Virus record (IMG/VR): IMGVR_UViG_3300046045_000004
DNA from: a virus
Direction: 5' to 3' (one strand)
DNA: 20,450 nt
A model generated the notes under the pieces. It saw only the letters and a program-made list of their open reading frames with translations. It had not been told where the DNA came from and searched no databases. The position numbers were made by a program, and so were the translations under genes. How positions within the stretch are numbered: position 1 is the first letter of the stretch; each line of letters begins with the position of its first letter. Of the stretch, positions 2,936 to 20,450 are shown in pieces.

Positions 2936-3175
2936 CTATCGCCTCCCCTTATGGTGCCGCGTCGTGATATCCGGGTACCGCCGATTAACGGCGCGCTCGA
3001 CCGTGCGATACGAGCCCGAGGTCGAGCGTTTCGCCGAGAGCGAGAGCGCAGCTCGTGCGCGCTTGCGCGTATCTATCGGGTACGCGTTACGACCTCGGCC
3101 GCCGACGCGTGACCGTTTCCCGTACACGACCGCCGACGCGGGCAGCGCGGCGCGGCGACTCGCCGAGATCGTCAC
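2936..3175 (-). CDS. Small basic protein between portal and protease (79 aa), function unknown
   Basis: Track ORF. The GTG overlaps the portal stop (GTGA). The segment AYPIDTRKRARAALSLSAKR...RAVNRRYPDI looks like a conserved head-module mini-domain. That resemblance is from recollection only. Confidence 0.55.
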   Translation of the reverse strand: MTISASRRAALPASAVVYGKRSRVGGRGRNAYPIDTRKRARAALSLSAKRSTSGSYRTVERAVNRRYPDITTRHHKGRR

Positions 3176-4425
3176 GGGCCGAAAGGCGCGCGGTCCTCTA
3201 GCGCGCGCACCTCGTCGACGGTCATAAACCCCGCGTCGATCGCGATTTTGTAGCTCTCATATCGCGATTTCGTATCGGCGCGCAGTAGCGCGTCGGTCGC
3301 AATCTTTACCGACGTGCCGCGCGGTAGCTCGGCGTCTAACGTCGACTCGATACGCCGCTGCCACGGCAGCAGGGTAAACGTGCGTAGTTCGATCATGCGC
3401 GACTCGACGTTCGCGTACGTCGAGCTATCGCCGGGCACGCCGAGCATGTAGGGCGGCACGCCGAACGCGATCGCGATATCGCGTAGCGACCATTCGCGCG
3501 CGGTCGATAGCTGCGCGTCGACGGGCGAGATAGCGACGGGCGTAAAATCCGTCGTTGCGTTTAGCACCGCGATCGAGCGCCGCGAGCCGCCGTGCTGCTC
3601 TAGCCATTTCGCCTTTAGCGCCGCGGCGTCGGTATCGGAGAGGTGCGGCTGGCTCGATTTCAGATAGCCCGCGGGTACGCCCGTCGTGAATACGCCCGAC
3701 GCGTAGCTGCGCACGGTCGCGGCGAGTCCCAGCTCGAGCCCGTGGGAGTCGATCACCCCGCGGCCGTGCCCGTTGAAATAGGGCGGCATTCCGCGTAGGT
3801 GCAATACCGAGCCGGGCGGTAGCGGTATCTCGTCGATCCAATACGTGCCCGCGTCGATCGTGACGGCGTGCGGGTGCAATTGCCAGAGCGGCGGTTTCGG
3901 CGCGCCCGCGCTGTCGCGCACGGGCGCGTATATGTAACCGTCGCCGAGCCATAGCGCGGCGACGATCCATTGCGCCCAAAACTCGACGGCCGATAGCCGC
4001 GCGTCGATCACGTCGCCCGCGCCGCCGACGACGCGGCCGTCGAGGCGCGTAGCTTGCGGGTCGGTAATCCAATCGGGCGCGGGTAGCTGCTCGTAGTCGC
4101 CGCGGATTACGTGCCACGGTAGGCCCGCGATCGTGTCGGCGACGATCGACGTGCAGCGCGTCACCGCGGGCAGCGTCGCGAGCCCGCGCGGGTCGCCGTC
4201 GATCGACGCGACGAGCGGGTTACCGTACGGGCCGCCCGTGCCGTCGCCGCCCGCGGGCCCTAGCCACCATAATTGCGGCGCGTCTATCTCCCACCCGTCC
4301 GGGTCGTTTAGCAGTACGTCGCGGCCATCGGTCGCGGTGTGAACGTGTACCGCGGGGCCCTCACGGGGCGAGCGGATCGGATCGCCGAGCGGCGACGCCG
4401 CACGCCGCGAGAGCGATAGCCGCAC
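3172..4425 (-). CDS. Portal protein (HK97-type)
   Basis: Track ORF of 417 aa, directly downstream of terL. The regions AVEFWAQWIVAALWLGDGYIY..., SIAVLNATTDFTPV and FGVPPYMLGV are characteristic of portal proteins. Confidence 0.9.
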   Translation of the reverse strand: MRLSLSRRAASPLGDPIRSPREGPAVHVHTATDGRDVLLNDPDGWEIDAPQLWWLGPAGGDGTGGPYGNPLVASIDGDPRGLATLPAVTRCTSIVADTIAGLPWHVIRGDYEQLPAPDWITDPQATRLDGRVVGGAGDVIDARLSAVEFWAQWIVAALWLGDGYIYAPVRDSAGAPKPPLWQLHPHAVTIDAGTYWIDEIPLPPGSVLHLRGMPPYFNGHGRGVIDSHGLELGLAATVRSYASGVFTTGVPAGYLKSSQPHLSDTDAAALKAKWLEQHGGSRRSIAVLNATTDFTPVAISPVDAQLSTAREWSLRDIAIAFGVPPYMLGVPGDSSTYANVESRMIELRTFTLLPWQRRIESTLDAELPRGTSVKIATDALLRADTKSRYESYKIAIDAGFMTVDEVRALEDRAPFGP

Positions 4426-4446: not shown

Positions 4447-5877
4447 TCACCATATACGCGACGGCTCGACCTCGGCGGGTACCCGAGCCGATACCCACCG
4501 GGCGAGCGACGCGGCGACGAGCGCGCTACCGCCGTCGAGCCGTGACCAAACCCACGCCTGCCCGATAGGGCGCCGAGCCGCCGACGCCGCCGCCGTATCG
4601 AGCACGAGGTGCGGGCGATGCGCGCCCGTGCCGTCGAGCACGGCGTCGTAAAACGCGGCGCACGCTATCTGTAGGTCGCGCGTCGACGAGACGACGAGAC
4701 GGTCGTACACGGGGCGTAGCTGCTCGGCGACCGTGCCCGCGGGCCCCGCGGCGTCGATCGCGATCGCGGTCGGCGACCATTGCGCCGCTAGCTCTACGAG
4801 CCGTGTCGCGACGTGCGCCGCGGGCACGAGGTCGACGACCTCGACGACGCCGCCCGAGCACGCGACGATCGGCGACTCGCTCCGATCGGGCGGGATATCC
4901 GCGGCGAACGTGATCGGGCCGGGCGGCAGCGGATCGAGGTACGCCGACGCGGCCCACGCGTCGACGGGCAGCACGCGCACGTCGGCATCGGTACGCCATC
5001 GGTTCCCGTACTCATGCGCGAATTGCCACGCGGGCATATGGTCCGCGGCAACCGCGAGCGCGTCGTAAATCGGGCCGCCGTCGAGCCCCGCGGACGGGTG
5101 CGCCCGCCATACCTCGCGCAGCAGCTCGCCGTCGTCGACCTCGGCACGTATCCCGTAATCGACGAGAGCGACGCGCGCGTGCGGATCGTCGAGCGCCGCG
5201 CGCGCGACCTCGACCTGCCGAGCGAGAAACCTGCTCTCGGGCCCGCCCGCCGTGCTCGGTATCCATATCTGCCCGTCGCGCGTCGCTTGCGTCGGCAGCG
5301 CCGCCGCGATTAACCCGTCGCCGTGCCGCGCATCGAAAAACCGCGCCTCGTCGAGCACGACGAGATCGGTAACGCTGCCGTGTAACGAATCCTCGGCGGG
5401 CGCGAAAACCCGTAGCTGCGCACCGTTCGCGAATTCGATTTCCTCGGCGCCCGCCGCGCCCCTCACGCGGTAATCCCAGCCGCCCGAATCCCACCCGCGG
5501 TGCGTATTCCCCTCGACGAGCGGCGACCGCCGCAGTAGCCGCACTAGCTCGCGCCAGCGTAGAACCGCGTCCATACGGCTCTGCGCCGTATACCACACTT
5601 GCGCGCCCTCGATCGCGAGGCAGCGGTCGATCGCCACGAGCTGCACGAGCCGCGTTTTACCGCTCTGCCTCGGCACGATCACGACGACTATCGGGTAGCG
5701 CCATCGCCCAGCGCGTCGCGAGTACCCGAGGCGCGCCGCGCGCGCTTGCCAGGGCCATAACGAGACGCCGAGCGCCTCGCTCGTGCGCAATAACGACCAC
5801 CCGCGCCCGATGTTCGGCGATGCGCGGGAGATAGCGCGCGGCTTAGGTGCGCGTTGGCGCGGTGCGGCCGTTACCAC
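4447..5877 (-). CDS. terL: Terminase large subunit
   Basis: Track ORF of 476 aa. Walker A is VPRQSGKT, Walker B is LVVLDEA, and there is a C-terminal nuclease-like half. The GTG start overlaps the HNH ORF end by 7 nt. Confidence 0.9.
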   Translation of the reverse strand: MVTAAPRQRAPKPRAISRASPNIGRGWSLLRTSEALGVSLWPWQARAARLGYSRRAGRWRYPIVVVIVPRQSGKTRLVQLVAIDRCLAIEGAQVWYTAQSRMDAVLRWRELVRLLRRSPLVEGNTHRGWDSGGWDYRVRGAAGAEEIEFANGAQLRVFAPAEDSLHGSVTDLVVLDEARFFDARHGDGLIAAALPTQATRDGQIWIPSTAGGPESRFLARQVEVARAALDDPHARVALVDYGIRAEVDDGELLREVWRAHPSAGLDGGPIYDALAVAADHMPAWQFAHEYGNRWRTDADVRVLPVDAWAASAYLDPLPPGPITFAADIPPDRSESPIVACSGGVVEVVDLVPAAHVATRLVELAAQWSPTAIAIDAAGPAGTVAEQLRPVYDRLVVSSTRDLQIACAAFYDAVLDGTGAHRPHLVLDTAAASAARRPIGQAWVWSRLDGGSALVAASLARWVSARVPAEVEPSRIW

Positions 5878-6212
5878 TCGCGATCGCTCGACCGTCTAGA
5901 GAAAATGGACAGAGTCACGGGGTGTTCCGGGGGCGCACCCATCGGAGAAACGGGCCCCAATTTTTCGGGCCCCTCTTTTTGGCCCCTCTTTTTCGGGCGG
6001 GTATTCGCGGCACGGTTACACCGGGGGTGGGAGGGGCGTGCCGTGTCATCGGTACCGCCGAGCACGCGGGGCACGACGTGATCGAGGTCGAATGCCTCGC
6101 CGTATCGGATCGGTTCGCCGCAGCGCGGGCACGGTTGCGGTAGTTGCTCGGCCCACCATGCGCGGAGTCTGCGCCACGCTCGGGTACTGCCTCGGTCGGT
6201 CAGTAGAGACAC
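5871..6212 (-). CDS. HNH endonuclease (packaging-associated type)
   Basis: Track ORF of 113 aa. The motifs are CPRCGEPI...DLDHVVPRVLGG...HPRCNR. It lies directly upstream of terL, as in HK97-like cos phages. The C-terminal 45 aa or so are encoded by the T-tract repeat block and may not be a folded domain. Confidence 0.8.
   Translation of the reverse strand: MSLLTDRGSTRAWRRLRAWWAEQLPQPCPRCGEPIRYGEAFDLDHVVPRVLGGTDDTARPSHPRCNRAANTRPKKRGQKEGPEKLGPVSPMGAPPEHPVTLSIFSRRSSDREW
5952..5993. repeat. T-tract repeat block. A perfect 13-bp tandem GGCCCCTCTTTTT x2 follows the related GGGCCCCAATTTTT.
   Basis: The perfect copies are at 5968-5980 and 5981-5993, and the degenerate copy is at 5952-5965. This is the most AT-rich spot of the late region and lies between the HNH catalytic core and the terL start. 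Confidence 0.85.
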
Positions 6213-6392
6213 GGGGCGTGCGGCACGGGTCCAGTGTGCAGCGGCCGCGTGCAGCTCGCTAGGCGGGTCGTGGGCCCGCTGCGCCGTATCTGCCTCTCAG
6301 TACGTCCGACGTATCTATGCGTCGTCGTGCGCCGTGTGCTACGCATTGCGACTAATCACGAGGCGGGCGGCCTTACCGCACGGGGGTAACCG
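6213..6392. promoter_or_regulatory. Divergent intergenic region between the HNH/late operon (minus) and the plus-strand cassette
   Basis: The region is 180 nt with no credible ORF, flanked by divergent starts at 6212 and 6393. It contains TGCAGCGGCCGCGTGCA (imperfect dyad around a NotI-type palindrome, about 6236-6252). I could not pin down a convincing -35/-10 pair. Confidence 0.35.
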
Positions 6393-6704
6393 ATGGCTAG
6401 CTCTCGACTACTGGCTCGGCTCGACTACGAAAAGTGTCGGGTATGGGGCCACGCGTGGGACACGTTCACGCCGCACGGTAAGCGGCCGCCCGGATGGGGC
6501 ACGCGGTTCGCGCTCCGTTGCGAGCGGTGCGGTACGGAGCGGCACGACGTGATCGACGCGCTAGGCGACGTAAGCCAGCGGCAGTACGTGTACCCCGACG
6601 ACTACCGCCTCGCTCGTGACGAAACGCCGTCGCGGCAATCGCTACGGCTCGACGTGCTCGACGCGCTTAGGTCGTCGAGACGATCACGGAAACGGAGCGC
6701 GTAG
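6393..6704 (+). CDS. Hypothetical Cys/His-containing protein (103 aa)
   Basis: Track ORF. The ATG lies 7 nt after GGGGG. It has a possible zinc site, C15-x4-H20 (CRVWGH) plus C43-x2-C46 (CERCG). Confidence 0.65.
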   Translation: MASSRLLARLDYEKCRVWGHAWDTFTPHGKRPPGWGTRFALRCERCGTERHDVIDALGDVSQRQYVYPDDYRLARDETPSRQSLRLDVLDALRSSRRSRKRSA

Positions 6705-7291
6705 TGAGCGGCAGTAGTGCGCGGTCACGCGAGCAGGTCGCGTGTCCCGAATGCGGTAAGCGGGTCACCCGTAACAATCTCAACCGCCACCGGGCGACGC
6801 ACGGCGTAGAGGCGCCGAGCAGTAACGGCAGCGGTCGCAAGGCGGGCACGCGGTTAAGCGCGGCGAGTCGTAAGCGGTTCGCGTCGGCGCACGCTCAGTC
6901 GAAAGCGGTCGGCTCGTATCTAGAGTCGCTCGCCGAGCAGAGCGAGACGCGTCGCAACGGCGGCCGTCGTGCGCGCGGTGCGAACCTCGGGCGCCTTAAA
7001 GGTTTCCCGAATTGGAGCGACGACCCGGACACGATCGACGCGGCCGCCGACGCGATCGCGGCGAATGGCGACGAGGTAGCGAGCTACGTCGCGGCGCTCC
7101 GATTGCAGCAGCGGGCGCTCGACCTCCACGCGGTCGCCGACGAGCTACGAGGCGGCAGCGGGCCCGGCGCGATCGAGGCGGCGTTTATCGAGGTCGCGGG
7201 CGCGTGGGCCGCGGAGCACGGGATTAGCTACGCGGCGTTTCGTGCGATGGGAGTACCGGCCGCGGTACTACGAGAGGCGGGCGTCAAGTAG
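6704..7291 (+). CDS. C2H2 (Ros/MucR-like) zinc-finger protein (195 aa), putative DNA-binding regulator
   Basis: Track ORF. The GTG overlaps the upstream TAG (TAGTG). The N-terminal CPECGKRVTRNNLNRHRATH fits C-x2-C-x11-H-x3-H. The middle is basic. The C-terminal WAAEHGISYAAFRAMGVPAAVLREAGV could be a second DNA-binding element, which is speculative. Confidence 0.65.
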   Translation: MSGSSARSREQVACPECGKRVTRNNLNRHRATHGVEAPSSNGSGRKAGTRLSAASRKRFASAHAQSKAVGSYLESLAEQSETRRNGGRRARGANLGRLKGFPNWSDDPDTIDAAADAIAANGDEVASYVAALRLQQRALDLHAVADELRGGSGPGAIEAAFIEVAGAWAAEHGISYAAFRAMGVPAAVLREAGVK

Positions 7292-7521
7292 TGCGGTCGA
7301 TCGCTCCGCGTACGGCGCCGGGCGGGCTCGTGTTCATTCTCTACGACGAGCACGACGCCGAGGTCGATCGCCTCGCCGCGACGAGCCTCGCTACCGACGA
7401 GGCGGCAGCGTTTCACGAGCGAGCGGCACGGCACGCCGAGCACGTGCTCGCGTCGGGCGGTTACGTCGTCGTGTTCGATGGGGATAGCGGCGCGATCGTC
7501 GGCGCGCTCGGCGTCACGTAG
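7291..7521 (+). CDS. Hypothetical protein (76 aa)
   Basis: Track ORF. The GTG overlaps the upstream TAG (TAGTG), the same coupling pattern as its neighbours. Confidence 0.55.
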   Translation: MRSIAPRTAPGGLVFILYDEHDAEVDRLAATSLATDEAAAFHERAARHAEHVLASGGYVVVFDGDSGAIVGALGVT

Positions 7522-7742
7522 TGAGAGGTGCAGCTATGGGATATCTGTACGTGCTCGGCGAGTGTTTCTCGTGCCATCGGCTCTTTACGTTTAGCGCCGA
7601 GCGGGTGCCGTCGATCGTCGTCGACGGGCAGCGTGAGCCCGTCTGCGCCGATTGCGTCGAGCGTGCTAACCCGGAGCGGATCGCTAACGGGTTACCGCCG
7701 ATCGTTCCGCTACCGGGCGCTTACGAGCCCGACGAGGTTTAG
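7521..7742 (+). CDS. Small zinc-ribbon protein (73 aa, or 68 aa from the ATG at 7536)
   Basis: Track ORF with CFSC...CADC (two CxxC pairs). The alternative ATG at 7536 lies 7 nt after GAGAGG. The 3' end overlaps the convergent MerR-like gene. Confidence 0.65.
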   Translation: MRGAAMGYLYVLGECFSCHRLFTFSAERVPSIVVDGQREPVCADCVERANPERIANGLPPIVPLPGAYEPDEV

Positions 7743-8046
7743 CGGGCGGCACGTCGAGGTCGACGACGACGACGAGGTATACGCCCTCGGCGACGTGCGC
7801 GTAGTGCGTCGCCTCGCCCTCGTCGATCGCGGCGCGTGCGATCTCGGCGGCCGCCGCGAGTGTTAGCCCCGCGTCGAGTAGCCGCACCATTACGGCCGCG
7901 ACGCGTAGCTCGTGCTCGGGCCAGCGGCGCCATACGCCCGAGCCGCCCGCGTGCTCGGGCCGTAGGTAGCCGCAGCGGGCCCAATAGTCGAGCCGCCGAT
8001 ACGAGACGCCGACCGCGCGCGACGCGGGCGTGCTCGGCGCCGTCAT
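7684..8046 (-). CDS. MerR-family HTH DNA-binding protein (120 aa)
   Basis: This is the C-terminal part of track ORF 7684..8250. The ATG at 8046 overlaps the methyltransferase stop (ATGA). The sequence GVSYRRLDYWARCGYLRPEH...RRWPEHELRVAAVMVRLLDAGLTL matches a MerR-type wHTH pattern. Confidence 0.7.
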   Translation of the reverse strand: MTAPSTPASRAVGVSYRRLDYWARCGYLRPEHAGGSGVWRRWPEHELRVAAVMVRLLDAGLTLAAAAEIARAAIDEGEATHYAHVAEGVYLVVVVDLDVPPAKPRRARKRPVAERSAVTR

Positions 8047-8558
8047 AGCTCTAGCTCTAGCTGCTGCTCGCGCACGGCGTGCGCCACGGCGCCCGAGCCA
8101 GGGAATACGTCGACGAATTCGTCGCCGGGTCGGTAGTCGAGCAGGTCGAGTAGCCAGCGCGTAAACGTCGCGGGTTTCGCGCCGCCCGGTTTCCCGTCGA
8201 CCTCGCGCCAGCCGCGCGCGCAATCGCTCGACGATACGAGCGCGTCCCATACCGTCGACCGCTCGCCGGGCGCGAGCCCGCGGTGATCGGTTACGAATAG
8301 CACGGGCTCCCAGCTATACCGGACCCTCGACCACCCGTTCGGCGCGAACGTCTTAGCCCACGCGGCGACGCGGGCGTGCGGCGCGAGGTTCCAGATAGCG
8401 CGGAGCGCCGTCGCCGAGGTCGAGAGCGCCCACCCGTCGAATTCGTCGAGGTATGCGAGCAGCAGCTCGACGTTTACCTCGCGGCCGCGCGGCCCGTACC
8501 GCTCGGTCGCCGTGCCCGGATACGGCGGATCGGCGTACGCGAGTCGGCGACGGCTCAT
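8043..8558 (-). CDS. DNA methyltransferase (N6-adenine or N4-cytosine type, DPPY motif), 171 aa
   Basis: This is part of track ORF 8043..8624. The ATG at 8558 overlaps the upstream stop (ATGA). Motif IV (AYADPPYPG) is near the N-terminus and an FxGxG-like FPGSGAV near the C-terminus, the beta-class order. No cognate endonuclease is evident. Confidence 0.75.
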   Translation of the reverse strand: MSRRRLAYADPPYPGTATERYGPRGREVNVELLLAYLDEFDGWALSTSATALRAIWNLAPHARVAAWAKTFAPNGWSRVRYSWEPVLFVTDHRGLAPGERSTVWDALVSSSDCARGWREVDGKPGGAKPATFTRWLLDLLDYRPGDEFVDVFPGSGAVAHAVREQQLELEL

Positions 8559-8779
8559 AGCGACGGCAGTACGTCGACGACGACGGGTGCGAGCGGGCAC
8601 GTACCGGGATCGCACCATGCGCACGAGCGGTCGACGGCTACGAGCAGCGCGTGCAGCGCGGCGGCGTATTCGGCGTGCGGGCCCATATCGCGCGGCACGT
8701 TTTCGACGGCGTGATACGCGGCGACGTAGCGCCGGGCGGCGTCGGCGATTGCGTCGCGCTCGGCCGCCGAGAGTCTCAC
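8555..8779 (-). CDS. Hypothetical protein (74 aa) with a CAWCDPGTC cysteine cluster
   Basis: Track ORF with GTGA overlap at its start and ATGA overlap at its end. Confidence 0.55.
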   Translation of the reverse strand: MRLSAAERDAIADAARRYVAAYHAVENVPRDMGPHAEYAAALHALLVAVDRSCAWCDPGTCPLAPVVVDVLPSL

Positions 8780-9018
8780 GCGAGGGGCGCGACGATCTCG
8801 GGCTCGACGTGTACGACGACGCCGACGCCGCCGCGGCGCACCGTGAACGACGGCAGATAGCCCTCGTGCTCGGTCGCGTGTACCTCTAGCTCGGTCGAGT
8901 CGTCGGTAATCGCTCGTATGGAGCCGACGAGCAGCCCCGCGAGCCAGTCTCGGTACCGCTCGGCACGGTGCGCCCGCTCTCGCTCGGCGTCGCTCTCACG
9001 CTGCGCCCTCGTGGTCAT
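8776..9018 (-). CDS. Hypothetical protein (80 aa)
   Basis: Track ORF. The ATG overlaps the upstream stop (ATGA), and its stop overlaps the next start (GTGA). Confidence 0.55.
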   Translation of the reverse strand: MTTRAQRESDAERERAHRAERYRDWLAGLLVGSIRAITDDSTELEVHATEHEGYLPSFTVRRGGVGVVVHVEPEIVAPLA

Positions 9019-9554
9019 AGCTCCCCCCTACGCATTCGCTCGCGAATCTCGTCGGCCGCGGCGCGGTTTGTCTCGCGCTGCTCGGCCGTCATCGGCGGTA
9101 GCTCCCAGCGCGACGCGTCGGCGCGCGGGCTCGTCGCCTCGTAGTCGTCGGCGTCGGTACCGTTACGCGTCACCGCGTTACGCGTAACGCGCTCCGTTAC
9201 GCGTAACGCGTCCGCGTCACTTTCGCCGGGATAACCCTCTCTCTCTAGCCCCTTACGGGGCGAGAGAGGGTTATATCCCGAGGAATTTCGAGCAGATTCG
9301 GCGTCGGATCGGGTGAGGTCGGCGTTACGCGTTGCGTTACGCGGCGTAACGCTTTCGCGTAACGCTCGGCGGTAGCGTTTCTGTCTCGCGCGGCTCTGCC
9401 GCCGACGTTTCTCGGCGCGGTCGAGCGCGGGCACGAGCAGCACGCCGTCGTCGACGACGAGGCGGTCGCCGTGGTCGAGCAGCGCGGCGACGGTCGCGAG
9501 CACGTCGAGGTCGTCGTCGTCGGCGCCGAATCCCGAGAGCAGCACGTACGGCAC
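9015..9554 (-). CDS. Hypothetical 179-aa protein whose central region is encoded by the iteron/cruciform array; candidate origin-binding or replication-initiation protein
   Basis: Track ORF. The GTG lies 1 nt after the upstream stop. There is an N-terminal acidic domain, then a basic stretch RRRQSRARQKRYRR. Repeated VT(P)RN peptides (SVTPRNATRN, RVTERVTRNAVTRNG) are encoded by GTTACGCG repeats. The functional call is inference only. Confidence 0.5.
   Translation of the reverse strand: MPYVLLSGFGADDDDLDVLATVAALLDHGDRLVVDDGVLLVPALDRAEKRRRQSRARQKRYRRALRESVTPRNATRNADLTRSDAESARNSSGYNPLSPRKGLEREGYPGESDADALRVTERVTRNAVTRNGTDADDYEATSPRADASRWELPPMTAEQRETNRAAADEIRERMRRGEL
9162..9363. repeat. Iteron array: five GTTACGCG and four (C/G)GCGTAAC copies in two clusters flanking a cruciform; includes 18-bp and 14-bp perfect palindromes
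   Basis: Forward copies are at 9162, 9177, 9196, 9324 and 9336. Reverse copies are at 9181, 9200, 9345 (7/8 match) and 9356. CGCGTTACGCGTAACGCG at 9174-9191 is a perfect palindrome, as is CGTTACGCGTAACG at 9195-9208. Confidence 0.9.
9228..9279. other. Long imperfect inverted repeat (potential cruciform or hairpin) at the centre of the iteron array
   Basis: ATAACCCTCTCTC (9231-9243) pairs perfectly with GAGAGAGGGTTAT (9262-9274). The inner stem is GCCCC/GGGGC with a TTAC loop. The outer GGG/CCC pair follows a 2-nt bulge. Confidence 0.85.
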
Positions 9555-9555
9555 C

Positions 9556-9834
9556 TCAGAGCCCGACCCTCGCTAATTCGATACGAGCGCCGCCGTGCTC
9601 GTCCGCGTGCCGTTCCGCGGGTGCCCACGGCATGAACGTAGCGCCGCACGTCGCGCAGCGGTAGCGGGGCGTAGAGACGCCCGAGGCGGGCGTCGCGCGC
9701 GGGTTACGTTCCGGGCGGTTCGTATCCGATGGCACGCGACGCCCGCGCCGCGCTCGCTCTGCGCCGTCTAGCTGGCTCGCGAGCGCGGCTACCGCTGCAC
9801 GGCGTAGCCGTGGCGGCATCTCGTCGAGGTTCAC
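9556..9834 (-). CDS. Small protein with a classical C2H2 zinc-finger pattern (92 aa)
   Basis: Track ORF. The GTG lies 9 nt after GAGGG. YRCATCGATFMPWAPAERHADEH fits Y-x-C-x2-C-x3-F-x8-H-x3-H. Confidence 0.65.
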   Translation of the reverse strand: MNLDEMPPRLRRAAVAALASQLDGAERARRGRRVPSDTNRPERNPRATPASGVSTPRYRCATCGATFMPWAPAERHADEHGGARIELARVGL

Positions 9835-9846
9835 GGGTGGGGCCCT

Positions 9847-10056
9847 CTAGTCGTCGTCGGGCTCGCCGAGCAGCAGCACGGGCGAGCATTGCTCTAGGTA
9901 GTGCGCGAGGTCGACGCCGCCGTACACGAGCGCGAGCGGTTCGCCCTCGGGCTCGCCGCTCCATAGCACGAGCCCGCCGTCGACGCCCGAGCGTGAGGCG
10001 CGCCACGGGCCGGGCGGTAGTTGCTCGGCCAGCTCGTGCAACCGCTCGCGGTTCAC
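9847..10056 (-). CDS. Hypothetical protein (69 aa)
   Basis: This is the C-terminal part of track ORF 9847..10203. The GTG at 10056 overlaps the stop of the upstream TM ORF (GTGA). The Arg-rich N-terminal part of the track ORF was discarded. Confidence 0.5.
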   Translation of the reverse strand: MNRERLHELAEQLPPGPWRASRSGVDGGLVLWSGEPEGEPLALVYGGVDLAHYLEQCSPVLLLGEPDDD

Positions 10057-10217
10057 CGCGGGCGCCGTTTCACGGTTTCGGGCGGGTCGTGTAGGTCGGC
10101 CCAAAATTTCACGTCGTGCTCGACCTCGTGCATACGGCGGCGCACCGCGAGGCACGCGAGCACGACGCCGAGCGCCGCCAGCGCGATAACGAGCGAGACC
10201 CAAAACGAGAGCGTCAT
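10053..10217 (-). CDS. Small membrane protein (54 aa, one N-terminal TM helix)
   Basis: It is below the track cutoff and was translated by hand: MTLSFWVSLVIALAALGVVLACLAVRRRMHEVEHDVKFWADLHDPPETVKRRPR. There is ATGA overlap upstream and GTGA overlap downstream. Confidence 0.55.
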   Translation of the reverse strand: MTLSFWVSLVIALAALGVVLACLAVRRRMHEVEHDVKFWADLHDPPETVKRRPR

Positions 10218-10414
10218 AACGCGGGCTCCGCTCGGGCGGCGCGCCAGCTATGGGTTTGCAGCAGGTCGAGCACCTCGTCGTCGTCGAAAACGGTCGCGTC
10301 GGCTACGTCGGTCGTCGACGTGAACGCGTACCGACGCGGGTAGCCGCGCACGGTATCGGCTACGTCGACGACGAAAACGCGGCCGCCCTCGCCGTCGCGG
10401 GTGATTACTTTCAC
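10214..10414 (-). CDS. Hypothetical protein (66 aa)
   Basis: Track ORF. The GTG overlaps the RecT stop (GTGA). Confidence 0.55.
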   Translation of the reverse strand: MKVITRDGEGGRVFVVDVADTVRGYPRRYAFTSTTDVADATVFDDDEVLDLLQTHSWRAARAEPAL

Positions 10415-11391
10415 GGCTCGCGCTGCTCGTCGTCGGGCGGGCGGTCGAGCGCCTCTAGGTATCCGATTACGCGGTCGGCCTCGGCGGGCGTTAGATCCTT
10501 GCTCGTCGATAGCTCGGGCCGGTTCACGATCTCACGCGCCAGCGCGAGCCGCTGCTCGCGGTCGCCGATCCCGTGCTCGCGCATTAGCTGCTGTAGCCGT
10601 CTCACTTGCGGCGCCGTAATCACGTCGCCGCGATCGTCGGTAGCGGCAGACGATGGCACGCCGCGATCGTCAGCGCCCGCGCCCTCGCGGGTAGCGGCGT
10701 CTGCCGCGTTCTCTCCGGGCAGCGGCGGTAGCGGCGCCGCTTGCGGTGCCGAATCCACTACGGCGGTCGTATCCGCTACTGCCGCTGCCGCGGCTTGGCG
10801 CCGACGCGTCGCGCGCGGGCGGGCGGGTGGAATACCCGCGGGCTCGGCGCCGACGCCGACCTCGCCGTCGAATTCTTCGATTGCGCCCAGCCCGTGCACT
10901 ACGTCGGCGAACACGGCGCGCACGAGGTCGGCGCTCGCGCGCGCCGAGAGCATCTGCCGCGGGTAGGCGCGCCAATTCGGTTTCCCGTCGAGCTTCGCGC
11001 GGCGCGCGTCGTCGAGGGTCCAGCTAACGCGCGTCACGTTTTCGGAGCCCGCACGGCGGCCGCACCATGTAGCGCGGCTCGTGGTCAGCTCGTCGGGCCA
11101 TATCTCGTGCCCCGCGGCGAGCACGAGCGCCCGCTGCGCCTCGGCCGCTACGAATATGCGGCCGTCGATCACGTGTATCTCGTTCACGCTTGCGAGCGGG
11201 CCGAGCCCTACCTCGTCGCCGTAGAGAATGGCGGCCGTAACGGCGGGCACGTTATGACGCAACCCGCGCGGCACGAATTCGGTCGGCGCGATCGTTTTCG
11301 CGACCTCGGCCGCGGGTGCGAGTATGTCGACCCACCCGCGCGCGGGCCCACGTTGCACGGGCGGGTCGACGACCTTAACTAACGCCGTCAT
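10411..11391 (-). CDS. recT: RecT-family single-strand annealing recombinase with a low-complexity linker and extra C-terminal domain (326 aa)
   Basis: This is part of track ORF 10411..11454. The ATG at 11391 overlaps the upstream stop (ATGA). The sequence ILYGDEVGLGPLASVNEIHVIDGR...NWRAYPRQMLSARASADLVRAVFADV is RecT-like. An Ala/Pro-rich linker follows, then ITAPQVRRLQQLMREHGIGDREQRLALAREIVNRPELSTSKDLTPAEADRVIGYLEAL. Confidence 0.8.
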   Translation of the reverse strand: MTALVKVVDPPVQRGPARGWVDILAPAAEVAKTIAPTEFVPRGLRHNVPAVTAAILYGDEVGLGPLASVNEIHVIDGRIFVAAEAQRALVLAAGHEIWPDELTTSRATWCGRRAGSENVTRVSWTLDDARRAKLDGKPNWRAYPRQMLSARASADLVRAVFADVVHGLGAIEEFDGEVGVGAEPAGIPPARPRATRRRQAAAAAVADTTAVVDSAPQAAPLPPLPGENAADAATREGAGADDRGVPSSAATDDRGDVITAPQVRRLQQLMREHGIGDREQRLALAREIVNRPELSTSKDLTPAEADRVIGYLEALDRPPDDEQREP

Positions 11392-11600
11392 AGCGTTAGC
11401 TCGCCCTGCTCGGGCGCGATCCCGTCGCGAATCCGCGACATACAACGCGAGCACGCGACCCGGCCGGTATTGCGGCGGCCGACGAGCGCGTTTAGCCCGC
11501 CGCCCGCGCCGCGGCCGCGTAAGTGTTCCCAGCCGCGCACCTCGCGGCCGTTCCGCTGCCGAGGGTCGAGCGCCTCGCCGCAGATCGAGCAGCGCGCCAT
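11388..11600 (-). CDS. Small zinc-ribbon-like protein (70 aa)
   Basis: This is the C-terminal part of track ORF 11388..11729, starting at the ATG at 11600. MARCSICGEALD...VACSRCMSRI has two CxxC pairs. Confidence 0.55.
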   Translation of the reverse strand: MARCSICGEALDPRQRNGREVRGWEHLRGRGAGGGLNALVGRRNTGRVACSRCMSRIRDGIAPEQGELTL

Positions 11601-11611
11601 ACCGCCGAGCG

Positions 11612-11842
11612 TCACGCCTCGACCTCGTAGTAATCGGCGCCGCCGTCGCGGCCGACGATCCACCCGGCGCGCGGGTGCGGCTCGTCGAGGTGAACCGAGC
11701 AGCAGCAGCCGCACGCGTTCACGTGCCATACGGCGCGGTGCCCCGTGTCGGCGTAGTCGTGTATTAGCCGCTCGATCGCGTGCGCCTGCTGAAATGGCAG
11801 CAGCGCGAGTAGCGAGCCCGCGTATGGATTCTCGCGGCTCAC
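11612..11842 (-). CDS. Hypothetical protein (76 aa) with a CGCCC cysteine cluster
   Basis: This is the C-terminal tail of the spurious 484-aa track ORF 11612..13066. The GTG at 11842 overlaps the exonuclease stop (GTGA). The sequence is VSRENPYAGSLLALLPFQQAHAIERLIHDYADTGHRAVWHVNACGCCCSVHLDEPH... Confidence 0.55.
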   Translation of the reverse strand: MSRENPYAGSLLALLPFQQAHAIERLIHDYADTGHRAVWHVNACGCCCSVHLDEPHPRAGWIVGRDGGADYYEVEA

Positions 11843-12627
11843 GTCGTCGCCTCGGCGGTCGTCGGCGCGGTGAGCGCGTCGCCGATCACGTCGCCACGAG
11901 GTCGAGCGCGAAACGCGGCGACCTGCTGCGCGTAGAGAAACGATCGAAACGTGCTCGGCCCGATATCGAGCGGCAGCACGTCGTACCCGTCCGCGCGGAG
12001 CCATACCGCGAGCCCGCGCCCGATTTTCGGCAGCTCGTGCTCGACGCCCTCGACGACGTACGCCTCGGCGTGCGCGTACGCGGCTAGCTGTAGCGCCGTC
12101 TCGGCGAATACGCCCGAGCCGCCCGTTTTCCAATCCACGACGGCTATCCCGAGGTCGTCGCCCGCGAGGTCGGCGCCGTCGACGTACGCGAGCAGGTCGA
12201 GCGTGCCCGCGTAGCGCCACTCGCGATTTACGACCATCGCCTCGACCGCGATCTCGTCGACGTGCCATTGCTCCAAAAACGCGAGGCACGCGTCGACGTG
12301 CCCGACGAGCGCGTCGTCGACCTCGACCTGCTCGCCGTGCAGTAGCCGCGCCGCGAGGTCGTGCACGGTCGTACCGCGCACGGTCGCCGCCTTTTGTCGG
12401 TCGAATCGGCCGCGCTCCATAGCGCGGAGCCGATCGGCCGAGCCGAGAGCGCCGAGGTCGTCCCAATGGTCGAGCGCGTAGCCCGCCGTCTCGCGGGCGG
12501 CCCAATCCACGAGCGCGGGTTTCGGTACGCCCTCGCCGATAATGCGGGTTACGCCGTCGACGGGCTCGCCCTCGTCGTCGACGTAACGGTGCCCGGACCC
12601 GGCGCGAATGCGCCGCCAGCCCGCCAC
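11839..12627 (-). CDS. PD-(D/E)XK (RecB/Cas4-like) exonuclease, partner of RecT
   Basis: Track ORF of 262 aa. The GTG lies 2 nt after the Xis-like stop. It has the GTLDLL...VVDWKTG (D...D/E-x-K) motif. It sits in a recombination module with RecT downstream. Confidence 0.7.
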   Translation of the reverse strand: MAGWRRIRAGSGHRYVDDEGEPVDGVTRIIGEGVPKPALVDWAARETAGYALDHWDDLGALGSADRLRAMERGRFDRQKAATVRGTTVHDLAARLLHGEQVEVDDALVGHVDACLAFLEQWHVDEIAVEAMVVNREWRYAGTLDLLAYVDGADLAGDDLGIAVVDWKTGGSGVFAETALQLAAYAHAEAYVVEGVEHELPKIGRGLAVWLRADGYDVLPLDIGPSTFRSFLYAQQVAAFRARPRGDVIGDALTAPTTAEATT

Positions 12628-12629
12628 GG

Positions 12630-12839
12630 TTAGCCCGCCTGCTCGGCCGTGCGCAGTAGCGCCTCGACGCTCGCGCGGGTGATACGCACGCCGCGGCGCG
12701 GGATCGTGCCGCGCGCGCTCGTTTGTATGTAATCGAGATCGCCGCGGTCGACCATGCGGTACACGGTGCGCACGCCAACGCGGAGATACGCCGCCGTCTC
12801 GGCGACGGTCCAGTACGGGCTACGCGGTTGCTCCGCCAT
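12630..12839 (-). CDS. Excisionase-type/MerR-superfamily HTH DNA-binding protein (69 aa)
   Basis: Track ORF. An ATG follows the RBS GGGGGGGAG. YWTVAETAAYLRVGVRTVYRMVDRGDL matches the Xis/HTH_17 pattern. It lies next to the integrase. Confidence 0.7.
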   Translation of the reverse strand: MAEQPRSPYWTVAETAAYLRVGVRTVYRMVDRGDLDYIQTSARGTIPRRGVRITRASVEALLRTAEQAG

Positions 12840-12954
12840 TCTCCCCCCCTGAGGTGCGAGGGTCCGCGCGTCGCCCGGCCGTGCGGATCGTGTCGCCGAC
12901 AGTAACGAGAGGCACGATCTGCCGCTAGCGGAAAATTGGATTTAGACGCGAAAT

Positions 12955-13001
12955 AACGCCCGCTCGTGTCACTCGATACACGTAGTGACAGAGCGGGCGT
13001 T
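12955..13001 (-). terminator. Strong hairpin (11 + 6 bp stem, 12-nt loop) 32 nt downstream of the integrase stop, inside an AT-rich island
   Basis: AACGCCCGCTC-G-TGTCAC [tcgatacacgta] GTGACA-GAGCGGGCGTT. On the minus strand it is followed only by a short ATTT, so it is not a textbook U-tract terminator. It could instead be a recombination or operator site. Confidence 0.5.
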
Positions 13002-13032
13002 AAATCGCGGACTACAGATCCACCCGAGCGCG

Positions 13033-14199
13033 TTACGACGCGCGGTGCGCCTCGATTCTGCGCCACGCGTTCGCGAGCGCCGTCGTCGCGAGGTCGTCGA
13101 CCTCGGCCCGCGCGTGCCCGTATACCTCTAGCAGCATCGCGGGCGTTGACCAGCCGTTACGCGCGGCGACGTTCAGCACGGGCACGCCCGCGGCTACCTG
13201 CTCGCTCGTGTTCACGTGCCGTAGGTCGTGGAAACGGAGCCGCACGCCCGCCGCGCGCGCTGCCCGTACCCATCGCTGCCCGAGAGCTTGCGGGCTCGTG
13301 TAGTCACGCTCTAGCCGCCGCGAGAGCACGGCTCGGTCGTCGAGGTCGTCGACGCCCGCACGCTCGGCCGCCTCGACCTGCCGTAGATAGCGGCTCGTCA
13401 GCATCGCCGCGCACGACGGGTCGAGACGCACGCGGCGTACCTTGCGCGTTTTTGTCGTGCGCCGCTGCCACGCGTTATCGCCGGGTCGCCCCTTGCATAC
13501 GTTCCCGTCGATCCGTACGACGCCGCCCACGAGGTCGATATCGCGCCAGCGGAGCGCGGCTAGCTCCCCTCGTCGGGCGCCCGTCGCGATCGCGAGGTGT
13601 ACGACCTCGCCGAGGTCGTCGCCCTCGTCGAGCCCCTCTAGGACGCGAGCGATATCGCCGAGGTCGTAGTCGTCGACCGCCCGGCGCGGCTCGTGGTCGT
13701 GGTCGTCGTCGAGCGCGGCCGGGATTACCCGAGCGCCGTCGTACTGCTCGCGGCGAATCCATCGGGCCCGCTCTACGTCGGCGAGCGCCTGCCGCACGAG
13801 GCGGGCGACGCCGCGCACCGTGCGGAGCGAGAGCGTCGGCGCGTGAGGCGCCACCGTGCCCGCTTGTAGCTGCCCGTAGTACCGCTCTAGCCGTTCCGGG
13901 TCGAGAGCGTCGAGCCGCACGCTTGCGAGCCAGTACGGCCGCACGTAACGCTCGACGCCGCCGACGTAGGCCCGCTCGGTATTCGGCGCCCAGCCGCCGC
14001 GGTGCAGCGCGACGTAACGGTCGAGCGCGTCGATAACGGTGCGCCCGTCCGCGTCGGCCGGGCGGCTCGCGAGCTGCTGCTCGACCTGCTGCGCCTGCTC
14101 GTGCGTATCGACCGTGCGGCAGACGCGCACGCGCTTACCCGCGGCGTCGGGCCGCTCTACGGTCACCTTGTAACGTCCGTTCCCTTGCTGCTGTATCAC
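13033..14199 (-). CDS. int: Tyrosine integrase (site-specific recombinase, phage integrase family)
   Basis: Track ORF of 388 aa. The GTG lies 6 nt after GGAG. It has an N-terminal arm/SAM-like region. Catalytic-domain signatures are ATGARRGEL (Arg I), HDLRH (His-x-x-Arg) and LEVYGH (Tyr). Confidence 0.9.
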   Translation of the reverse strand: MIQQQGNGRYKVTVERPDAAGKRVRVCRTVDTHEQAQQVEQQLASRPADADGRTVIDALDRYVALHRGGWAPNTERAYVGGVERYVRPYWLASVRLDALDPERLERYYGQLQAGTVAPHAPTLSLRTVRGVARLVRQALADVERARWIRREQYDGARVIPAALDDDHDHEPRRAVDDYDLGDIARVLEGLDEGDDLGEVVHLAIATGARRGELAALRWRDIDLVGGVVRIDGNVCKGRPGDNAWQRRTTKTRKVRRVRLDPSCAAMLTSRYLRQVEAAERAGVDDLDDRAVLSRRLERDYTSPQALGQRWVRAARAAGVRLRFHDLRHVNTSEQVAAGVPVLNVAARNGWSTPAMLLEVYGHARAEVDDLATTALANAWRRIEAHRAS

Positions 14200-14226
14200 G
14201 TGTTTCTCCGATCGGATCGACCGTCG

Positions 14227-14415
14227 CGCGGGTGGCGCGACGGGTGGCGCGCCGCTGGCAAGCGGCGTATTCCGATGCTACGAGCGGCACGAGCGGCACG
14301 CGTAATGGCACGTCAGAGCGTGTACGCCGTCGCGGCTCCCTAACTCTGACATAGAGCACGGGCGCAGCGTTTCAGCAGGTCAGAGCCCCTATCCACAAGG
14401 GGCGCGGGTGGCGCG
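14227..14415. repeat. Repeat-rich intergenic region upstream of int: three GGGTGGCGCG copies, a GAGCGGCAC tandem x2 and GTCAGAG/CTCTGAC inverted motifs; attP/arm-site candidate
   Basis: GGGTGGCGCG occurs at 14230-14239, 14242-14251 and 14406-14415. GAGCGGCAC x2 is at 14282-14299. GTCAGAG is at 14312-14318 and 14380-14386, with its complement CTCTGAC at 14344-14350. The small hairpin GCCCC-tatccacaa-GGGGC is at 14386-14404. Confidence 0.6.
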
Positions 14416-14603
14416 CGCGGTGGCGGTGGATAACGGCGGGCCCGGATCGTGCGTCTAGGGTGCCGCCGCGCGCGCGGGCGGCGCCCGTCGAGAGTGGCGA
14501 AAACGGATCGGCTCGGCGACCGTCCGCGTGCGTACAGTCGGCAGCGGCGGGCACGGCCGGGCGGCCCTCGTTCCCCCCAGCCGAGCCGCCCGACGTGCCG
14601 CCT

Positions 14604-14729: not shown

Positions 14730-14828
14730 CTAGCCGCGGCGCGTGAGCCCGACGAGCCAGCGCACGAGCGCGATACCCGCGAGCACGCCTAGCTCGATGT
14801 TCAGCACGAGAGCTTGCGTATGGCTCAT
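14730..14828 (-). CDS. Tiny single-TM protein (32 aa), holin candidate
   Basis: Hand translation gives MSHTQALVLNIELGVLAGIALVRWLVGLTRRG. The ATG overlaps the endolysin TAA (TAATG). Confidence 0.5.
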   Translation of the reverse strand: MSHTQALVLNIELGVLAGIALVRWLVGLTRRG

Positions 14829-15514
14829 TACTGCCTCGTTCGCATCGCGTACGCCTCGCCCTTAATCGAAACGAGGTCGTAGCCGTGCGCGCCGCCGTCG
14901 CTCGGCGCGCAGAGCACGCGGAACCGTCGCGCGGGATCGTTGCGCACGTTCGCCGGTAGCGAGAAATACGACCCGTAAAACGGGCCGCGCACCGTGCGCA
15001 CGCCGCCGTCGTATTGCAGATCCCACGCGCCCTCGTCGGTTACGAGCCGCGCGACCGTTTCCTTATCTCCGGGCACGTCGTCACCTCCCACGGGCGGCGC
15101 GCTCGCGCCGCCACTCTCGCCGAGGCACGCGGCGACGACCTCGTGCCAGCGCGCCATCGTGAAATCACCGGGGCATACCGTCGAGCTGCCCGGACTATTG
15201 CGATGCGCGACGACCTCGGGCTCGTCGACGACGTACCCGTGCGCGCGTGCGTCGTCGAGCGCCGCGGCGATTACGTCGAGGTCGTGATCGGTAACCGCGT
15301 GCTCCATGCGGTTACCCGGTAGCACGAGGTCGACGCTAACGCCGTTTCGGTCGAGCGTCGCGTACGACGACCAAACATCGCGGAACCGAGCGAACGTATC
15401 GGTACCGATCGCGTACGTGTAGCCGCCCTCAGAGCAGCGCCACGCGTTCGCCGCGGTCGTCGGCGCGCCCGCGCCCTCGTGGTGCACGGTAACGAGCGAG
15501 ACGGGCGCGGGCAT
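14828..15514 (-). CDS. Endolysin: N-acetylmuramoyl-L-alanine amidase (PGRP/Amidase_2-like) with an uncharacterised C-terminal domain
   Basis: Track ORF of 228 aa. VTVHHEG...HRNSPGSSTVCPG matches the zinc-amidase signature. A Gly/Pro linker follows, then a C-terminal domain of about 80 aa. It lies after the tail genes and before the TM ORFs. Confidence 0.8.
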   Translation of the reverse strand: MPAPVSLVTVHHEGAGAPTTAANAWRCSEGGYTYAIGTDTFARFRDVWSSYATLDRNGVSVDLVLPGNRMEHAVTDHDLDVIAAALDDARAHGYVVDEPEVVAHRNSPGSSTVCPGDFTMARWHEVVAACLGESGGASAPPVGGDDVPGDKETVARLVTDEGAWDLQYDGGVRTVRGPFYGSYFSLPANVRNDPARRFRVLCAPSDGGAHGYDLVSIKGEAYAMRTRQ

Positions 15515-20147: not shown

Positions 20148-20450
20148 CTACTCGCCCGAGCTAGCCGACGCCGCGGCGGTCCGCGCGACGGGCGGCGTGC
20201 GCACGAGCGGCGCGGTTAGCTGCCACTCGAAATCGCTCGTTATACGCGCGTTCACGTCGCCGCCGTACGTCTCGGCGGGCACCTCGATACGGAGCGAGCC
20301 GGTAAGCGTCGGGCCCGCGGCGTTCGGCGTGTACGTGAACGCGACGACCTCTAGGTCGTGGTCGTAGCAATACTCGATGATCGAGTCGCCCGCGGCCGCG
20401 GTCCAATCTTGAATTACGGTGCCCGCGAGCGAGCGGCCGCCGAGCTTGCG
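20148..20450 (-). CDS. Putative major tail protein, C-terminal part (5' end runs off the window; 20324-20450 duplicates 1-127)
   Basis: Hand translation gives ...FTYTPNAAGPTLTGSLRIEVPAETYGGDVNARITSDFEWQLTAPLVRTPPVARTAAASASSGE, ending in the TAG at 20150-20148. It is in frame with 1-292 through the repeat. Confidence 0.55.
   Translation of the reverse strand, partial: RKLGGRSLAGTVIQDWTAAAGDSIIEYCYDHDLEVVAFTYTPNAAGPTLTGSLRIEVPAETYGGDVNARITSDFEWQLTAPLVRTPPVARTAAASASSGE
20324..20450. repeat. Terminal direct repeat, copy 2 (identical to 1-127)
   Basis: See copy 1. Confidence 0.95.

Follow-up and report, generated by a model that had tools for sequence, protein, structure and literature searches.

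The DNA analyzed here, referred to as the window, is a stretch of 20,450 nucleotides (nt) from the IMG/VR virus record IMGVR_UViG_3300046045_000004. It is the complete circular genome, of about 20,323 bp, of a small siphovirus-like temperate phage with a G+C content of 69%; an exact overlap of 127 nt between its two ends (1-127 and 20324-20450) is an assembler k-mer overlap and not a biological terminal repeat. An open reading frame (ORF) of 179 codons on the minus strand, ORF179, contains a block of short palindromic repeats grouped around an inverted repeat. An earlier note, made from the sequence alone, had placed this block within ORF 9015-9554, where it is translated in part as VT(R/P)RN peptides, and had read it as a putative replication origin inside the gene of a novel initiator, with an arrangement like that of lambda O. 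The position and the peptides were correct, with the ORF on the minus strand. The features of the locus are as follows.

9015-9554, minus strand: ORF179, 179 residues, the proposed minimal replication initiator, containing the whole block
9426-9554, minus strand: small N-terminal domain of ORF179, residues 1-43, with a helix (18-28) and a beta-hairpin (30-41) in an AlphaFold2 model
9354-9419, minus strand: Arg-rich helix of ORF179, residues 46-67 (...RRRQSRARQKRYRRALRE), the proposed heptad reader
9323-9364: gene-proximal heptad cluster, CGTTACG at 9323 and 9335, CGTAACG at 9345 and 9358
9280-9322: A+T-richer spacer with the core GAAATTC (gene sense), the proposed site of first strand opening
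9226-9279: hairpin or cruciform, a 54-nt imperfect inverted repeat of three tiers, between the heptad clusters
9161-9221: gene-distal heptad cluster, CGTTACG at 9161, 9176, and 9195, CGTAACG at 9183 and 9202
9167-9173 and 9214-9220: G/C-centred variants in the gene-distal cluster, GCGTCAC, matching at six of seven positions
9027-9086, minus strand: C-terminal helix of ORF179, residues 157-176, predicted local distance difference test score (pLDDT) 85-92

Heptad array, spacer, and hairpin within ORF179

The 8-mer GTTACGCG is present in eight copies in 9162-9363 (five forward, three reverse) and in one copy elsewhere in the window, at 13156. The five direct and four inverted copies described in the earlier note correspond to five direct copies, three exact inverted copies, and a fourth inverted copy that matches at only 7/8 positions. 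The number expected by chance had been underestimated there as less than one per strand, whereas dinucleotide-preserving shuffles give 4.4 per window on both strands. A large share of the copies of the 7-mer GTTACGC (9 of the window's 14) also fall in 9162-9363. A better description of the repeat unit is the heptad CGTNACG, which is palindromic about a central base that can vary. CGTWACG heptads (W being A or T) number 20 in the window, compared with 9.9 expected; nine of the 20 lie within the 204 nt of 9161-9364, which is 1% of the sequence, and the other 11 match the chance expectation. Clustering, and not the total repeat count, is the significant feature, and it is far beyond chance. The array is single, with no second one in the genome.

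The two clusters and their perfect palindromes had been described correctly. Both palindromes, of 18 bp (9174-9191, CGCGTTACGCGTAACGCG) and of 14 bp (9195-9208), are exact, and each consists of two contiguous heptads, the first centred on T and the second on A. The inverted repeat between the clusters was likewise recovered with its perfect 13-bp stem (9231-9243 paired with 9262-9274) and its inner 5-bp stem (GCCCC/GGGGC). Its base (GGGAT...ATCCC) is conserved, and its interior is variable yet self-complementary. The predicted folding energy is -20.9 kcal/mol for the 54 nt of 9226-9279 and -22.8 kcal/mol for the 64 nt of 9222-9285, with a z score of about -6.5 and none of 200 shuffles equally stable; a terminator scan found no T run after the hairpin. 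The 40-nt windows of the adjacent spacer are among the lowest 0.7% of G+C content within the window.

ORF179 starts with GTG, one base past the stop codon of the upstream gene, and its stop codon overlaps the ATG of the next gene (ATGA); both its start and its stop are translationally coupled to neighbouring genes. The AlphaFold2 model was built on an alignment of 13 sequences (A3), in which the Arg-rich helix is the most conserved motif of the family and R51, R57, and R62 are invariant. This segment is predicted to be helical (pLDDT 68-83); residues 57-62 read RQKRYR, and the first heptad begins at codon 64. Residues 71-140, encoded by the element, have a pLDDT below 50 and no predicted structure. 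A conserved W-x-L-P-P-M-T-D-E-Q-R motif in the alignment precedes the C-terminal helix.

Conservation of the element at the DNA level

A word-indexed search of 5.8 billion proteins returned ORF179 itself and one relative (P0002), and a HMMER profile search of 1.84 billion representatives added 11 more relatives of 151-182 residues. The ORF179 family comprises only 13 cluster representatives among 1.84 billion, with all members falling in this length range. DNA was analyzed for 11 homologous genes (L001, L002, L005, L006, L008, L010, L011, L012, L013, L014, and L015), which together with the window make up 12 loci with protein identities of 26-68%. Where the contig is long enough, the gene order is shared: RecT, small ORFs, the ORF179 homologue, small ORFs, a MerR-like gene, and an opposite-strand cluster.

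The earlier note had held that homologous genes keeping the protein and lacking the DNA repeats would speak against an origin. All 11 homologous genes retain the element with its order and orientation unchanged: one heptad cluster, the A+T-richer spacer, a hairpin of 47-60 nt, and the other heptad cluster. Further hairpin-bearing members were found in IMG/VR (L041, L062, L072, and L074). The 12 hairpins of the homologous loci adopt a common three-tier fold (-16.5 to -25 kcal/mol, z of -3 to -9), in which a base of GGGAT/ATCCC or GGGG/CCCC leads, past 2-3 bulged nt on the 5′ side, into a pyrimidine/purine stem of 10-13 bp and then, past a bulge on the 3′ side, into a G+C-rich tip ending in a loop of 3-5 nt. 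The loops are often GNRA-like (GTAA, GAAA), and the bulges lie on conserved sides of the sense strand. Little sequence is shared among the 12 hairpin interiors. Across the 10 hairpins that could be aligned, 94.3% of the cells are paired, and 11/16 pairs have changed on both sides; none of 500 shuffles reached any of five measures, and sliding the partner by one to three columns left 35-66% pairing. The one-sided departures in the stem comprise four G.U and six A.C mismatches, with no sense-strand bias, a pattern in the aligned sequences that fits better with a duplex palindrome than with an RNA structure, without proving the former.

The spacer, which lies upstream of the hairpin in the gene sense, is similarly conserved in composition. 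Its 40-nt windows are among the lowest 0-3% in G+C content in 12/12 loci and constitute the locus-wide minimum in 5/12, with absolute values of 40-57% over the 12 loci. Most of 15 loci examined have a GAA(A)(A)TTC-like core that lies upstream of the hairpin at a distance of 5-25 nt.

Several lines of evidence indicate that this conservation acts on the DNA rather than on the encoded peptide. The periodicity of G+C content at third codon positions is strong at both ends of ORF179 (0.87-1.0) and absent across 9150-9375. The heptad is read in all three codon phases in ORF179 (as ALR, VTR/VTP, and SDA/RDA), and the three phases are represented 50/23/31 times over the 12 homologous genes. Taken together with the predicted disorder and the compensatory covariation of the hairpin, these observations establish the block as a DNA-level element that is translated as a disordered linker, with repeats conserved independently of the protein. 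Peptide repeats were considered as the cause of the DNA repeats and rejected, given the three reading phases (ALR, VTR, and RDA). A pair of small genes separated by a noncoding gap was also rejected, since the frame is open across the element in 12/12 homologous genes and the other two frames usually contain 1-13 stop codons.

Comparison of the window with its close relative L001 separates the element from its surroundings. Over 2.5 kb the two are 95-100% identical outside a few islands, and 9130-9440 is only 55-70% identical. The other islands are short and comprise the RecT linker, the RecT start, and an intergenic stretch at ∼9833-9892; the first of these, 10580-10750 inside recT, is a hypervariable stretch with 40-50% identity to L001, compared with 95-100% around it, and encodes an Ala/Pro-rich linker. 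Within 9130-9440, the heptads of L001 are mostly G/C-centred, whereas those of the window are mostly T/A-centred, and the basic helix differs as well, so the heptad type and the basic helix change together. Across the family, a predominance of T/A centres goes with N or S at the residue before the first invariant Arg, and one of G/C centres with A or H, in 10/11 informative genes, a correspondence that is a lead and not a result, as the column (12 genes) was picked after inspection and the count ignores phylogeny.

A gene for a C2H2 zinc-finger protein of 92 residues (9556-9834, minus strand) lies just upstream of ORF179. It is 95-100% identical in L001 despite the different heptad type and is therefore unlikely to set the specificity. 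Its product has classical C2H2 spacing (Y-R-C-x2-C-x12-H-x3-H). In L001 and L014, a zinc-finger gene likewise precedes the homologue; an upstream ORF of comparable length (81-92 residues) was called in L010, L012, and L015 and none in L002, L006, L008, and L011.

Related arrays in other phages and gene content of the window

IMG/VR was scanned for a pattern of two paired heptads (ACGCGTNACG and CGTNACGCGTNACG, separated by 0-30 nt). The scan returned 83 contigs with G+C contents of 41-75%, of which 61 have at least five heptads within 300 nt and 29 at least eight, with a maximum of 18. These arrays are located within ORFs. In a first set, 10/10 of the array-bearing ORFs match PHROG families annotated as replication initiation, primosomal protein, or DnaD-like loader, and 2/10 in a second set do so (12/20 overall). 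The "replication initiation protein" families matched were phrog_2509, 9474, 2447, 3926, 5810, and 345 ("O-like"), and the Pfam matches in the first set were one DUF1376 and one DnaT domain. A hairpin-bearing member, L072, matches phrog_2447 (E = 1.9e-4), and in L054 a DnaB-family helicase gene directly follows the array gene (PF03796, E = 2.7e-76). The Arg-rich motif accompanies the array: R[QASK]xx[YFWH]R is found within 300 nt of it in 41/61 loci, compared with ∼0.07 expected per zone from the remainder of the same loci. It typically lies a few codons upstream of the array in the same ORF and most often reads RQRRYR or a close variant, and the array-encoded peptides are of the type VTRD, VTRN, or ASRD.

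Members with low G+C content that were read by eye (L076, L053, and L052) have a plain A+T-rich tract in place of the hairpin. At that position, after or within the heptad array, L053 carries an A+T-rich simple repeat, (CTGTT)n, at 12960-13010, and L076 an A+T-rich duplication, AAAACAACACATA, at 1810-1870. Two contigs with 53-55% G+C, L042 (6397-6451) and L058 (1733-1787), contain about four copies of a perfect tandem 14-nt unit, CGTAACGCGTGACG. These read as (VTRD)n with an RQAKHR motif nearby and apparently lie either between genes or where a short ORF ends.

A profile-profile comparison (hhalign) of the ORF179 family (A3) with nine array-bearing initiator-like proteins (A7) gave a match with 89.5% probability (E = 2e-6) over 50 columns, corresponding to residues 21-69; the match is brief and falls in part on a basic stretch of biased composition. 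In the relatives, the aligned part comprises the basic motif together with the final helix and hairpin of the N-terminal domain. The full domain (W...PK...DG.L...GF...VGW) contributes only its last ∼25 residues to the alignment, the ORF179 N terminus being 43 residues long. Judged from these alignments, ORF179 looks like a cut-down member of the array-bearing initiator class. Direct comparison with the hidden Markov models of phrog_2447, phrog_9474, and phrog_2509 yielded no match, and a tblastn search of cultured phages with the motif-plus-repeat peptide also returned none, possibly owing to the low-complexity filter.

The remaining genes of the window were assigned by Pfam and PHROG scans of all sizeable ORFs, and almost all lie on the minus strand.

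986-2233: capsid
2382-2933: protease
3172-4425: portal
4447-5877: large terminase
5871-6212: HNH endonuclease
6234-7742, plus strand: short cluster between the early and the packaging genes
7684-8250: MerR-like gene, the last early gene ahead of the packaging genes
8043-8624, minus strand: methyltransferase-like gene with a DPPY motif, a few genes downstream of ORF179
10411-11454: RecT
11839-12627: PD-(D/E)XK exonuclease
12630-12839: HTH_17 excisionase-like gene
13033-14199: tyrosine integrase
14828-15514: amidase
17669-19351: tape measure

In agreement with the earlier note, these scans recovered no helicase, primase, polymerase, or known initiator in the window; in this respect they yielded only the RecT-like protein and the PD-(D/E)XK exonuclease. 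The early operon runs from integrase and excisionase through exonuclease, RecT, small ORFs, ORF179, and the methylase-like gene to MerR. The longest ORF of the early region (484 residues, 11612-13066, minus strand) was considered as a hidden replication gene and rejected as a shadow ORF: codon-position G+C content and family matches identify the real genes there as the exonuclease and HTH_17 genes in other frames. The counterpart of the methyltransferase-like gene in L013 (1013-1561) belongs to the MT-A70 family. A 19-nt inverted repeat (12947-13009, 89% complementary, 25-nt loop) is located just past the integrase stop codon, with an A+T-richer stretch between it and the HTH_17 gene; this region looks like a terminator followed by the start of the early operon.

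By portal protein, the nearest cultured relatives are 17-kb Microbacterium phages of the Orlajensenviridae (36% identity). Cultured phages gave no match at the DNA level or with ORF179; no prophage copy was found in 185,579 genomes searched, and a scan of metagenome contigs with the ORF179 protein returned no match.

A proposed replication origin and its known counterparts

The layout of the element, its position in the early operon, the lack of another replication gene, and the comparative evidence together make a replication origin the most likely reading of this locus. We estimate a probability of roughly 0.7 that 9161-9364 is an origin embedded in the gene of a minimal initiator, ORF179. 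The lambda-O-like origin in a novel initiator gene that the earlier note proposed is in this respect supported by the homologues, by the arrays in genes of PHROG replication-initiation families, and by the probable remote relationship of ORF179 to their products.

In the mechanism that we propose, the ORF179 protein would bind the CGTNACG heptads, probably in dimeric or higher oligomeric form and probably through the Arg-rich helix (residues 46-67), aided by the small N-terminal domain. The joint change of basic helix and heptad type between the window and L001, and the occurrence of motif and array side by side in 41/61 loci, point to such binding indirectly. The sites bound would be the heptads of the two clusters, some single and some in contiguous pairs (the 14-18-bp palindromes), with both orientations represented. 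Loading of both clusters could place stress on the 100 bp between them, which hold the least G+C-rich DNA of the region and the 54-nt inverted repeat, and the latter could extrude as a hairpin or cruciform. Strand opening between the clusters would then be followed by recruitment of the host replisome; no helicase, primase, or polymerase is encoded by the phage itself. Recruitment may involve the conserved C-terminal helix, which we propose to touch a replication protein of the host. The origin-encoded stretch of the protein would serve as a disordered linker that tolerates the constraints on the DNA. Least certain in this scheme is what the hairpin does, with two candidates: a cruciform that eases opening in high-G+C DNA, or a single-stranded signal for loading or priming.

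Several observations weigh against an origin in the ORF179 gene. The spacer, although the A+T-richest part of the block, still has 50-57% G+C in the window, and the A+T-rich tract found in place of the hairpin in L076, L053, and L052 implies that the latter is not general to this type of origin. ORF179 has no significant match in Pfam, PHROGs, NCBIfam, or the PDB sequences (for Pfam and PHROGs, none at E ≤ 0.01); matches to Rev and to a potassium channel in the PDB were rejected as compositional and nonsignificant, and a Foldseek search of the PDB with the ORF179 model gave no meaningful fold match. The protein is without the full N-terminal domain of its larger relatives, its link to initiators depends on one 50-column profile-profile match together with the shared motif plus array, and the PHROG names are annotations rather than tested functions. 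No helicase-loader or helicase gene adjoins ORF179 or occurs anywhere in the window. Heptad binding by ORF179, the residues that read the heptad, opening in the spacer or hairpin, and recruitment of a host helicase are all steps that we infer. Finally, the cumulative GC skew, in which the earlier note had suggested looking for an inflection, instead forms a broad plateau (7600-11200) with no sharp turn at the array; the skew is uninformative here, with genes almost all on one strand.

Other functions for the array were considered. It could be a regulatory site unconnected with replication, an operator or roadblock bound by ORF179 or by the MerR-like, HTH_17, or zinc-finger protein and controlling the early operon or the synthesis of its own binding protein. 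Contiguous 7-bp palindromic units in direct and inverted orientation are also a repressor-binding pattern, and repressors such as omega of pSM19035 (heptads) and MetJ (8-bp boxes) act on short contiguous units. In addition, the array lies within an operon, and many initiators autoregulate through their iterons. Operators are expected at promoters, however, and a promoter and terminator scan found no promoter-like site at the array. Across phages the arrays go with replication-initiation families and dnaB instead of repressors, it is not obvious what a roadblock would need the hairpin and the conserved A+T-richer spacer for, and the zinc-finger gene retains 95-100% identity in L001 despite the change of heptad type. 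We therefore regard a purely regulatory array as unlikely; autoregulation through the heptads is compatible with an origin. Resemblances of the half-sites TTAC and TGAC to basic leucine zipper (bZIP) sites, and of the heptads to omega and MetJ operators, are a lead and not evidence.

Alternatively, the block could serve for packaging, as a pac or cos site within the gene of a small terminase, with the protein binding both clusters and positioning the large terminase, with its HNH nuclease, to cut between them. Two clusters around a central target resemble the SPP1 pac site, which overlaps gene 1 (PMC6316719). A length of 179 residues fits a small terminase, no small terminase gene was recognized anywhere in the window, including between the HNH and large terminase genes, and the HNH gene directly abuts that of the large terminase. 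Against this, ORF179 is situated in the early operon near RecT, ∼3 kb from the terminase gene and with the opposite-strand cluster in between, and it has no match to any terminase family. Its 70-residue centre, predicted to be disordered, would be unlike an oligomeric small terminase. Identical arrays are found elsewhere in genes matching replication-initiation families, one of them beside dnaB, and the ends of two near-genome-length related contigs coincide neither with the site nor with each other. A packaging site at this position thus appears quite improbable. Those contig ends had also been considered as a clue to the genome ends and were set aside, as they fall in different places and nothing can be inferred from them. 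The centromere-like and pac-type sites listed as alternatives in the earlier note are without positive support. As separate observations, the HNH gene shares 7 nt with the start of the large terminase gene, and the MerR-like gene (7684-8250) might serve as the small terminase; lambda Nu1 has a MerR-like fold.

An RNA element is less probable still. Here, the hairpin would act in the mRNA as the target of the Arg-rich motif of ORF179, for autoregulation or antitermination comparable to lambda N and boxB, and the heptads would be secondary. The composition of the Arg-rich helix resembles that of RNA-binding arginine-rich motifs, with the best PDB matches including HIV Rev (E = 0.04), and the GNRA-like loops and the conserved sense-strand sides of the bulges would fit an RNA. 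The Rev matches are nonsignificant and driven by composition, however, and Rfam 15 contains no match (best scores of 20-26 bits against thresholds of 36-70). The stem mismatches show no strand bias (an A.C on one strand being a G.U on the other), and the heptad arrays are palindromic sites of a DNA type that are present in many phages without the hairpin.

A phage attachment site (attP), with the clusters as integrase arm-type sites and the inverted repeat as the core, is extremely improbable. Two short-repeat clusters separated by ∼150 bp, with an inverted repeat in the middle, do look like arms and core, and attP lies inside a gene in some actinobacteriophages. The integrase gene (13033-14199), however, is 3.7 kb away with a better candidate site directly upstream of it (14226-14425), the same type of array is found in phage genes that match replication families, and the hairpin interior differs wholly between close relatives, unlike a core that must match a host site. 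The region 14226-14425 is a candidate attP with arm-type sites. It contains a 24-nt direct repeat (GCGCGGGTGGCGCG.CG.GTGGCG) at 14226-14249 and 14402-14425, three copies of CGCCACCCG (0.8 expected in the whole window), and an inverted pair of the DnaA-box-like TATCCAC at 14390 and 14426, flanking the second 24-nt copy.

Beyond a replication origin at this one locus, the recurrence of the Arg-rich helix (consensus A-E-R-Q-R-R-Y-R-E-R-K) with a heptad array a few codons on raises a broader idea, which we advance as doubtful: that the two form a portable "origin plus origin-reader" cassette, a DNA-recognition module not described before and joined to several unrelated N- and C-terminal domains. 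In phages of hosts with 41-75% G+C, its partners may be DUF1376, proteins of the phrog_2509/2447 type or with a DnaT domain, and, in ORF179, a stub of 45 residues. The central base of the heptad may set replicon specificity, read by the residue before the first invariant Arg, and in high-G+C phages a covarying cruciform may replace the A+T-rich unwinding element. If so, ORF179 would come close to being the smallest known self-contained initiator among double-stranded DNA phages.

The origins of phages infecting high-G+C Gram-positive bacteria are almost unmapped, and the small ones apparently carry no replication genes. If the element is an origin, a 540-bp fragment would constitute a self-contained replicon module (origin and initiator) that relies solely on host proteins, and it could provide a useful minimal vector origin for actinobacteria and a route to the recruited host factors. 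The signature of RQRRYR followed by CGTNACG heptads in a 7-bp register would mark candidate origins in dozens of uncultured phages from widely differing hosts and assign a role to ORFs that currently lack one, among them the ORF179 family with no match to a known family. The locus would also be an example of dual coding, in which one stretch of DNA serves as binding array, structured palindrome, and translated linker. A literature search for the repeat sequences and peptides returned only unrelated cloning primers, which, given its incomplete coverage, is weak evidence of novelty.

One of the closest known arrangements is that of the lambdoid phages (lambda and the Stx phages), in which the origin, consisting of iterons and an AT-rich tract, lies in the middle of the initiator gene O (PMC7466680; PMC12663957). 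The two share repeated sites with internal dyad symmetry beside an A+T-richer tract (PMC7466680; PMC12663957), a repeat number that alters the protein length, and joint variation of the repeats and the DNA-binding part of the protein between relatives. In contrast to lambda O, ORF179 has no match to Pfam (Phage_rep_O) or to any PHROG, including the "O-like" phrog_345, is ∼60% of the length of O, and is not followed by a gene for a P-like loader. The repeats also differ, being contiguous 7-bp heptads rather than iterons of 18-19 bp and flanking the opening region on both sides, and the ∼50-nt covarying hairpin is a conserved feature of the ORF179 element that the lambdoid origin does not share.

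In SPP1, oriL likewise combines direct repeats with an AT-rich unwinding element inside gene 38, whose product, gp38, binds it (PMC6316719). There is no sequence similarity between gp38 and ORF179, and SPP1 possesses a loader (gp39), a DnaB-type helicase (gp40), and a second origin, whereas the phage described here has neither loader nor helicase and only a single array. Cis-acting sites within the genes of their binding proteins are also found in packaging: P1 pac lies within pacA. SPP1 pac overlaps gene 1, and gp1 binds pacL and pacR around pacC (PMC6316719), an arrangement that shares with the ORF179 element two clusters around a central target; unlike gene 1, the ORF179 gene is not beside the terminase gene, and its product shows no similarity to terminases and is probably related to replication proteins.

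Also close in organization are the proteins of phrog_2447, phrog_9474, and phrog_2509 and the DUF1376 and DnaT "primosomal" proteins of uncultured phages, which have in-gene CGTNACG arrays with the RQ(R/K)(R/K)YR(E)RK motif just upstream. They are larger than ORF179, with 200-490 residues, a full N-terminal domain, and often a C-terminal domain (e.g., DnaT). The principle of an origin within an initiator gene is textbook knowledge; what appears to be new at this locus is the protein family, the heptad type, the coupling of the heptads to an Arg-rich motif across unrelated initiator scaffolds, and the covarying hairpin.

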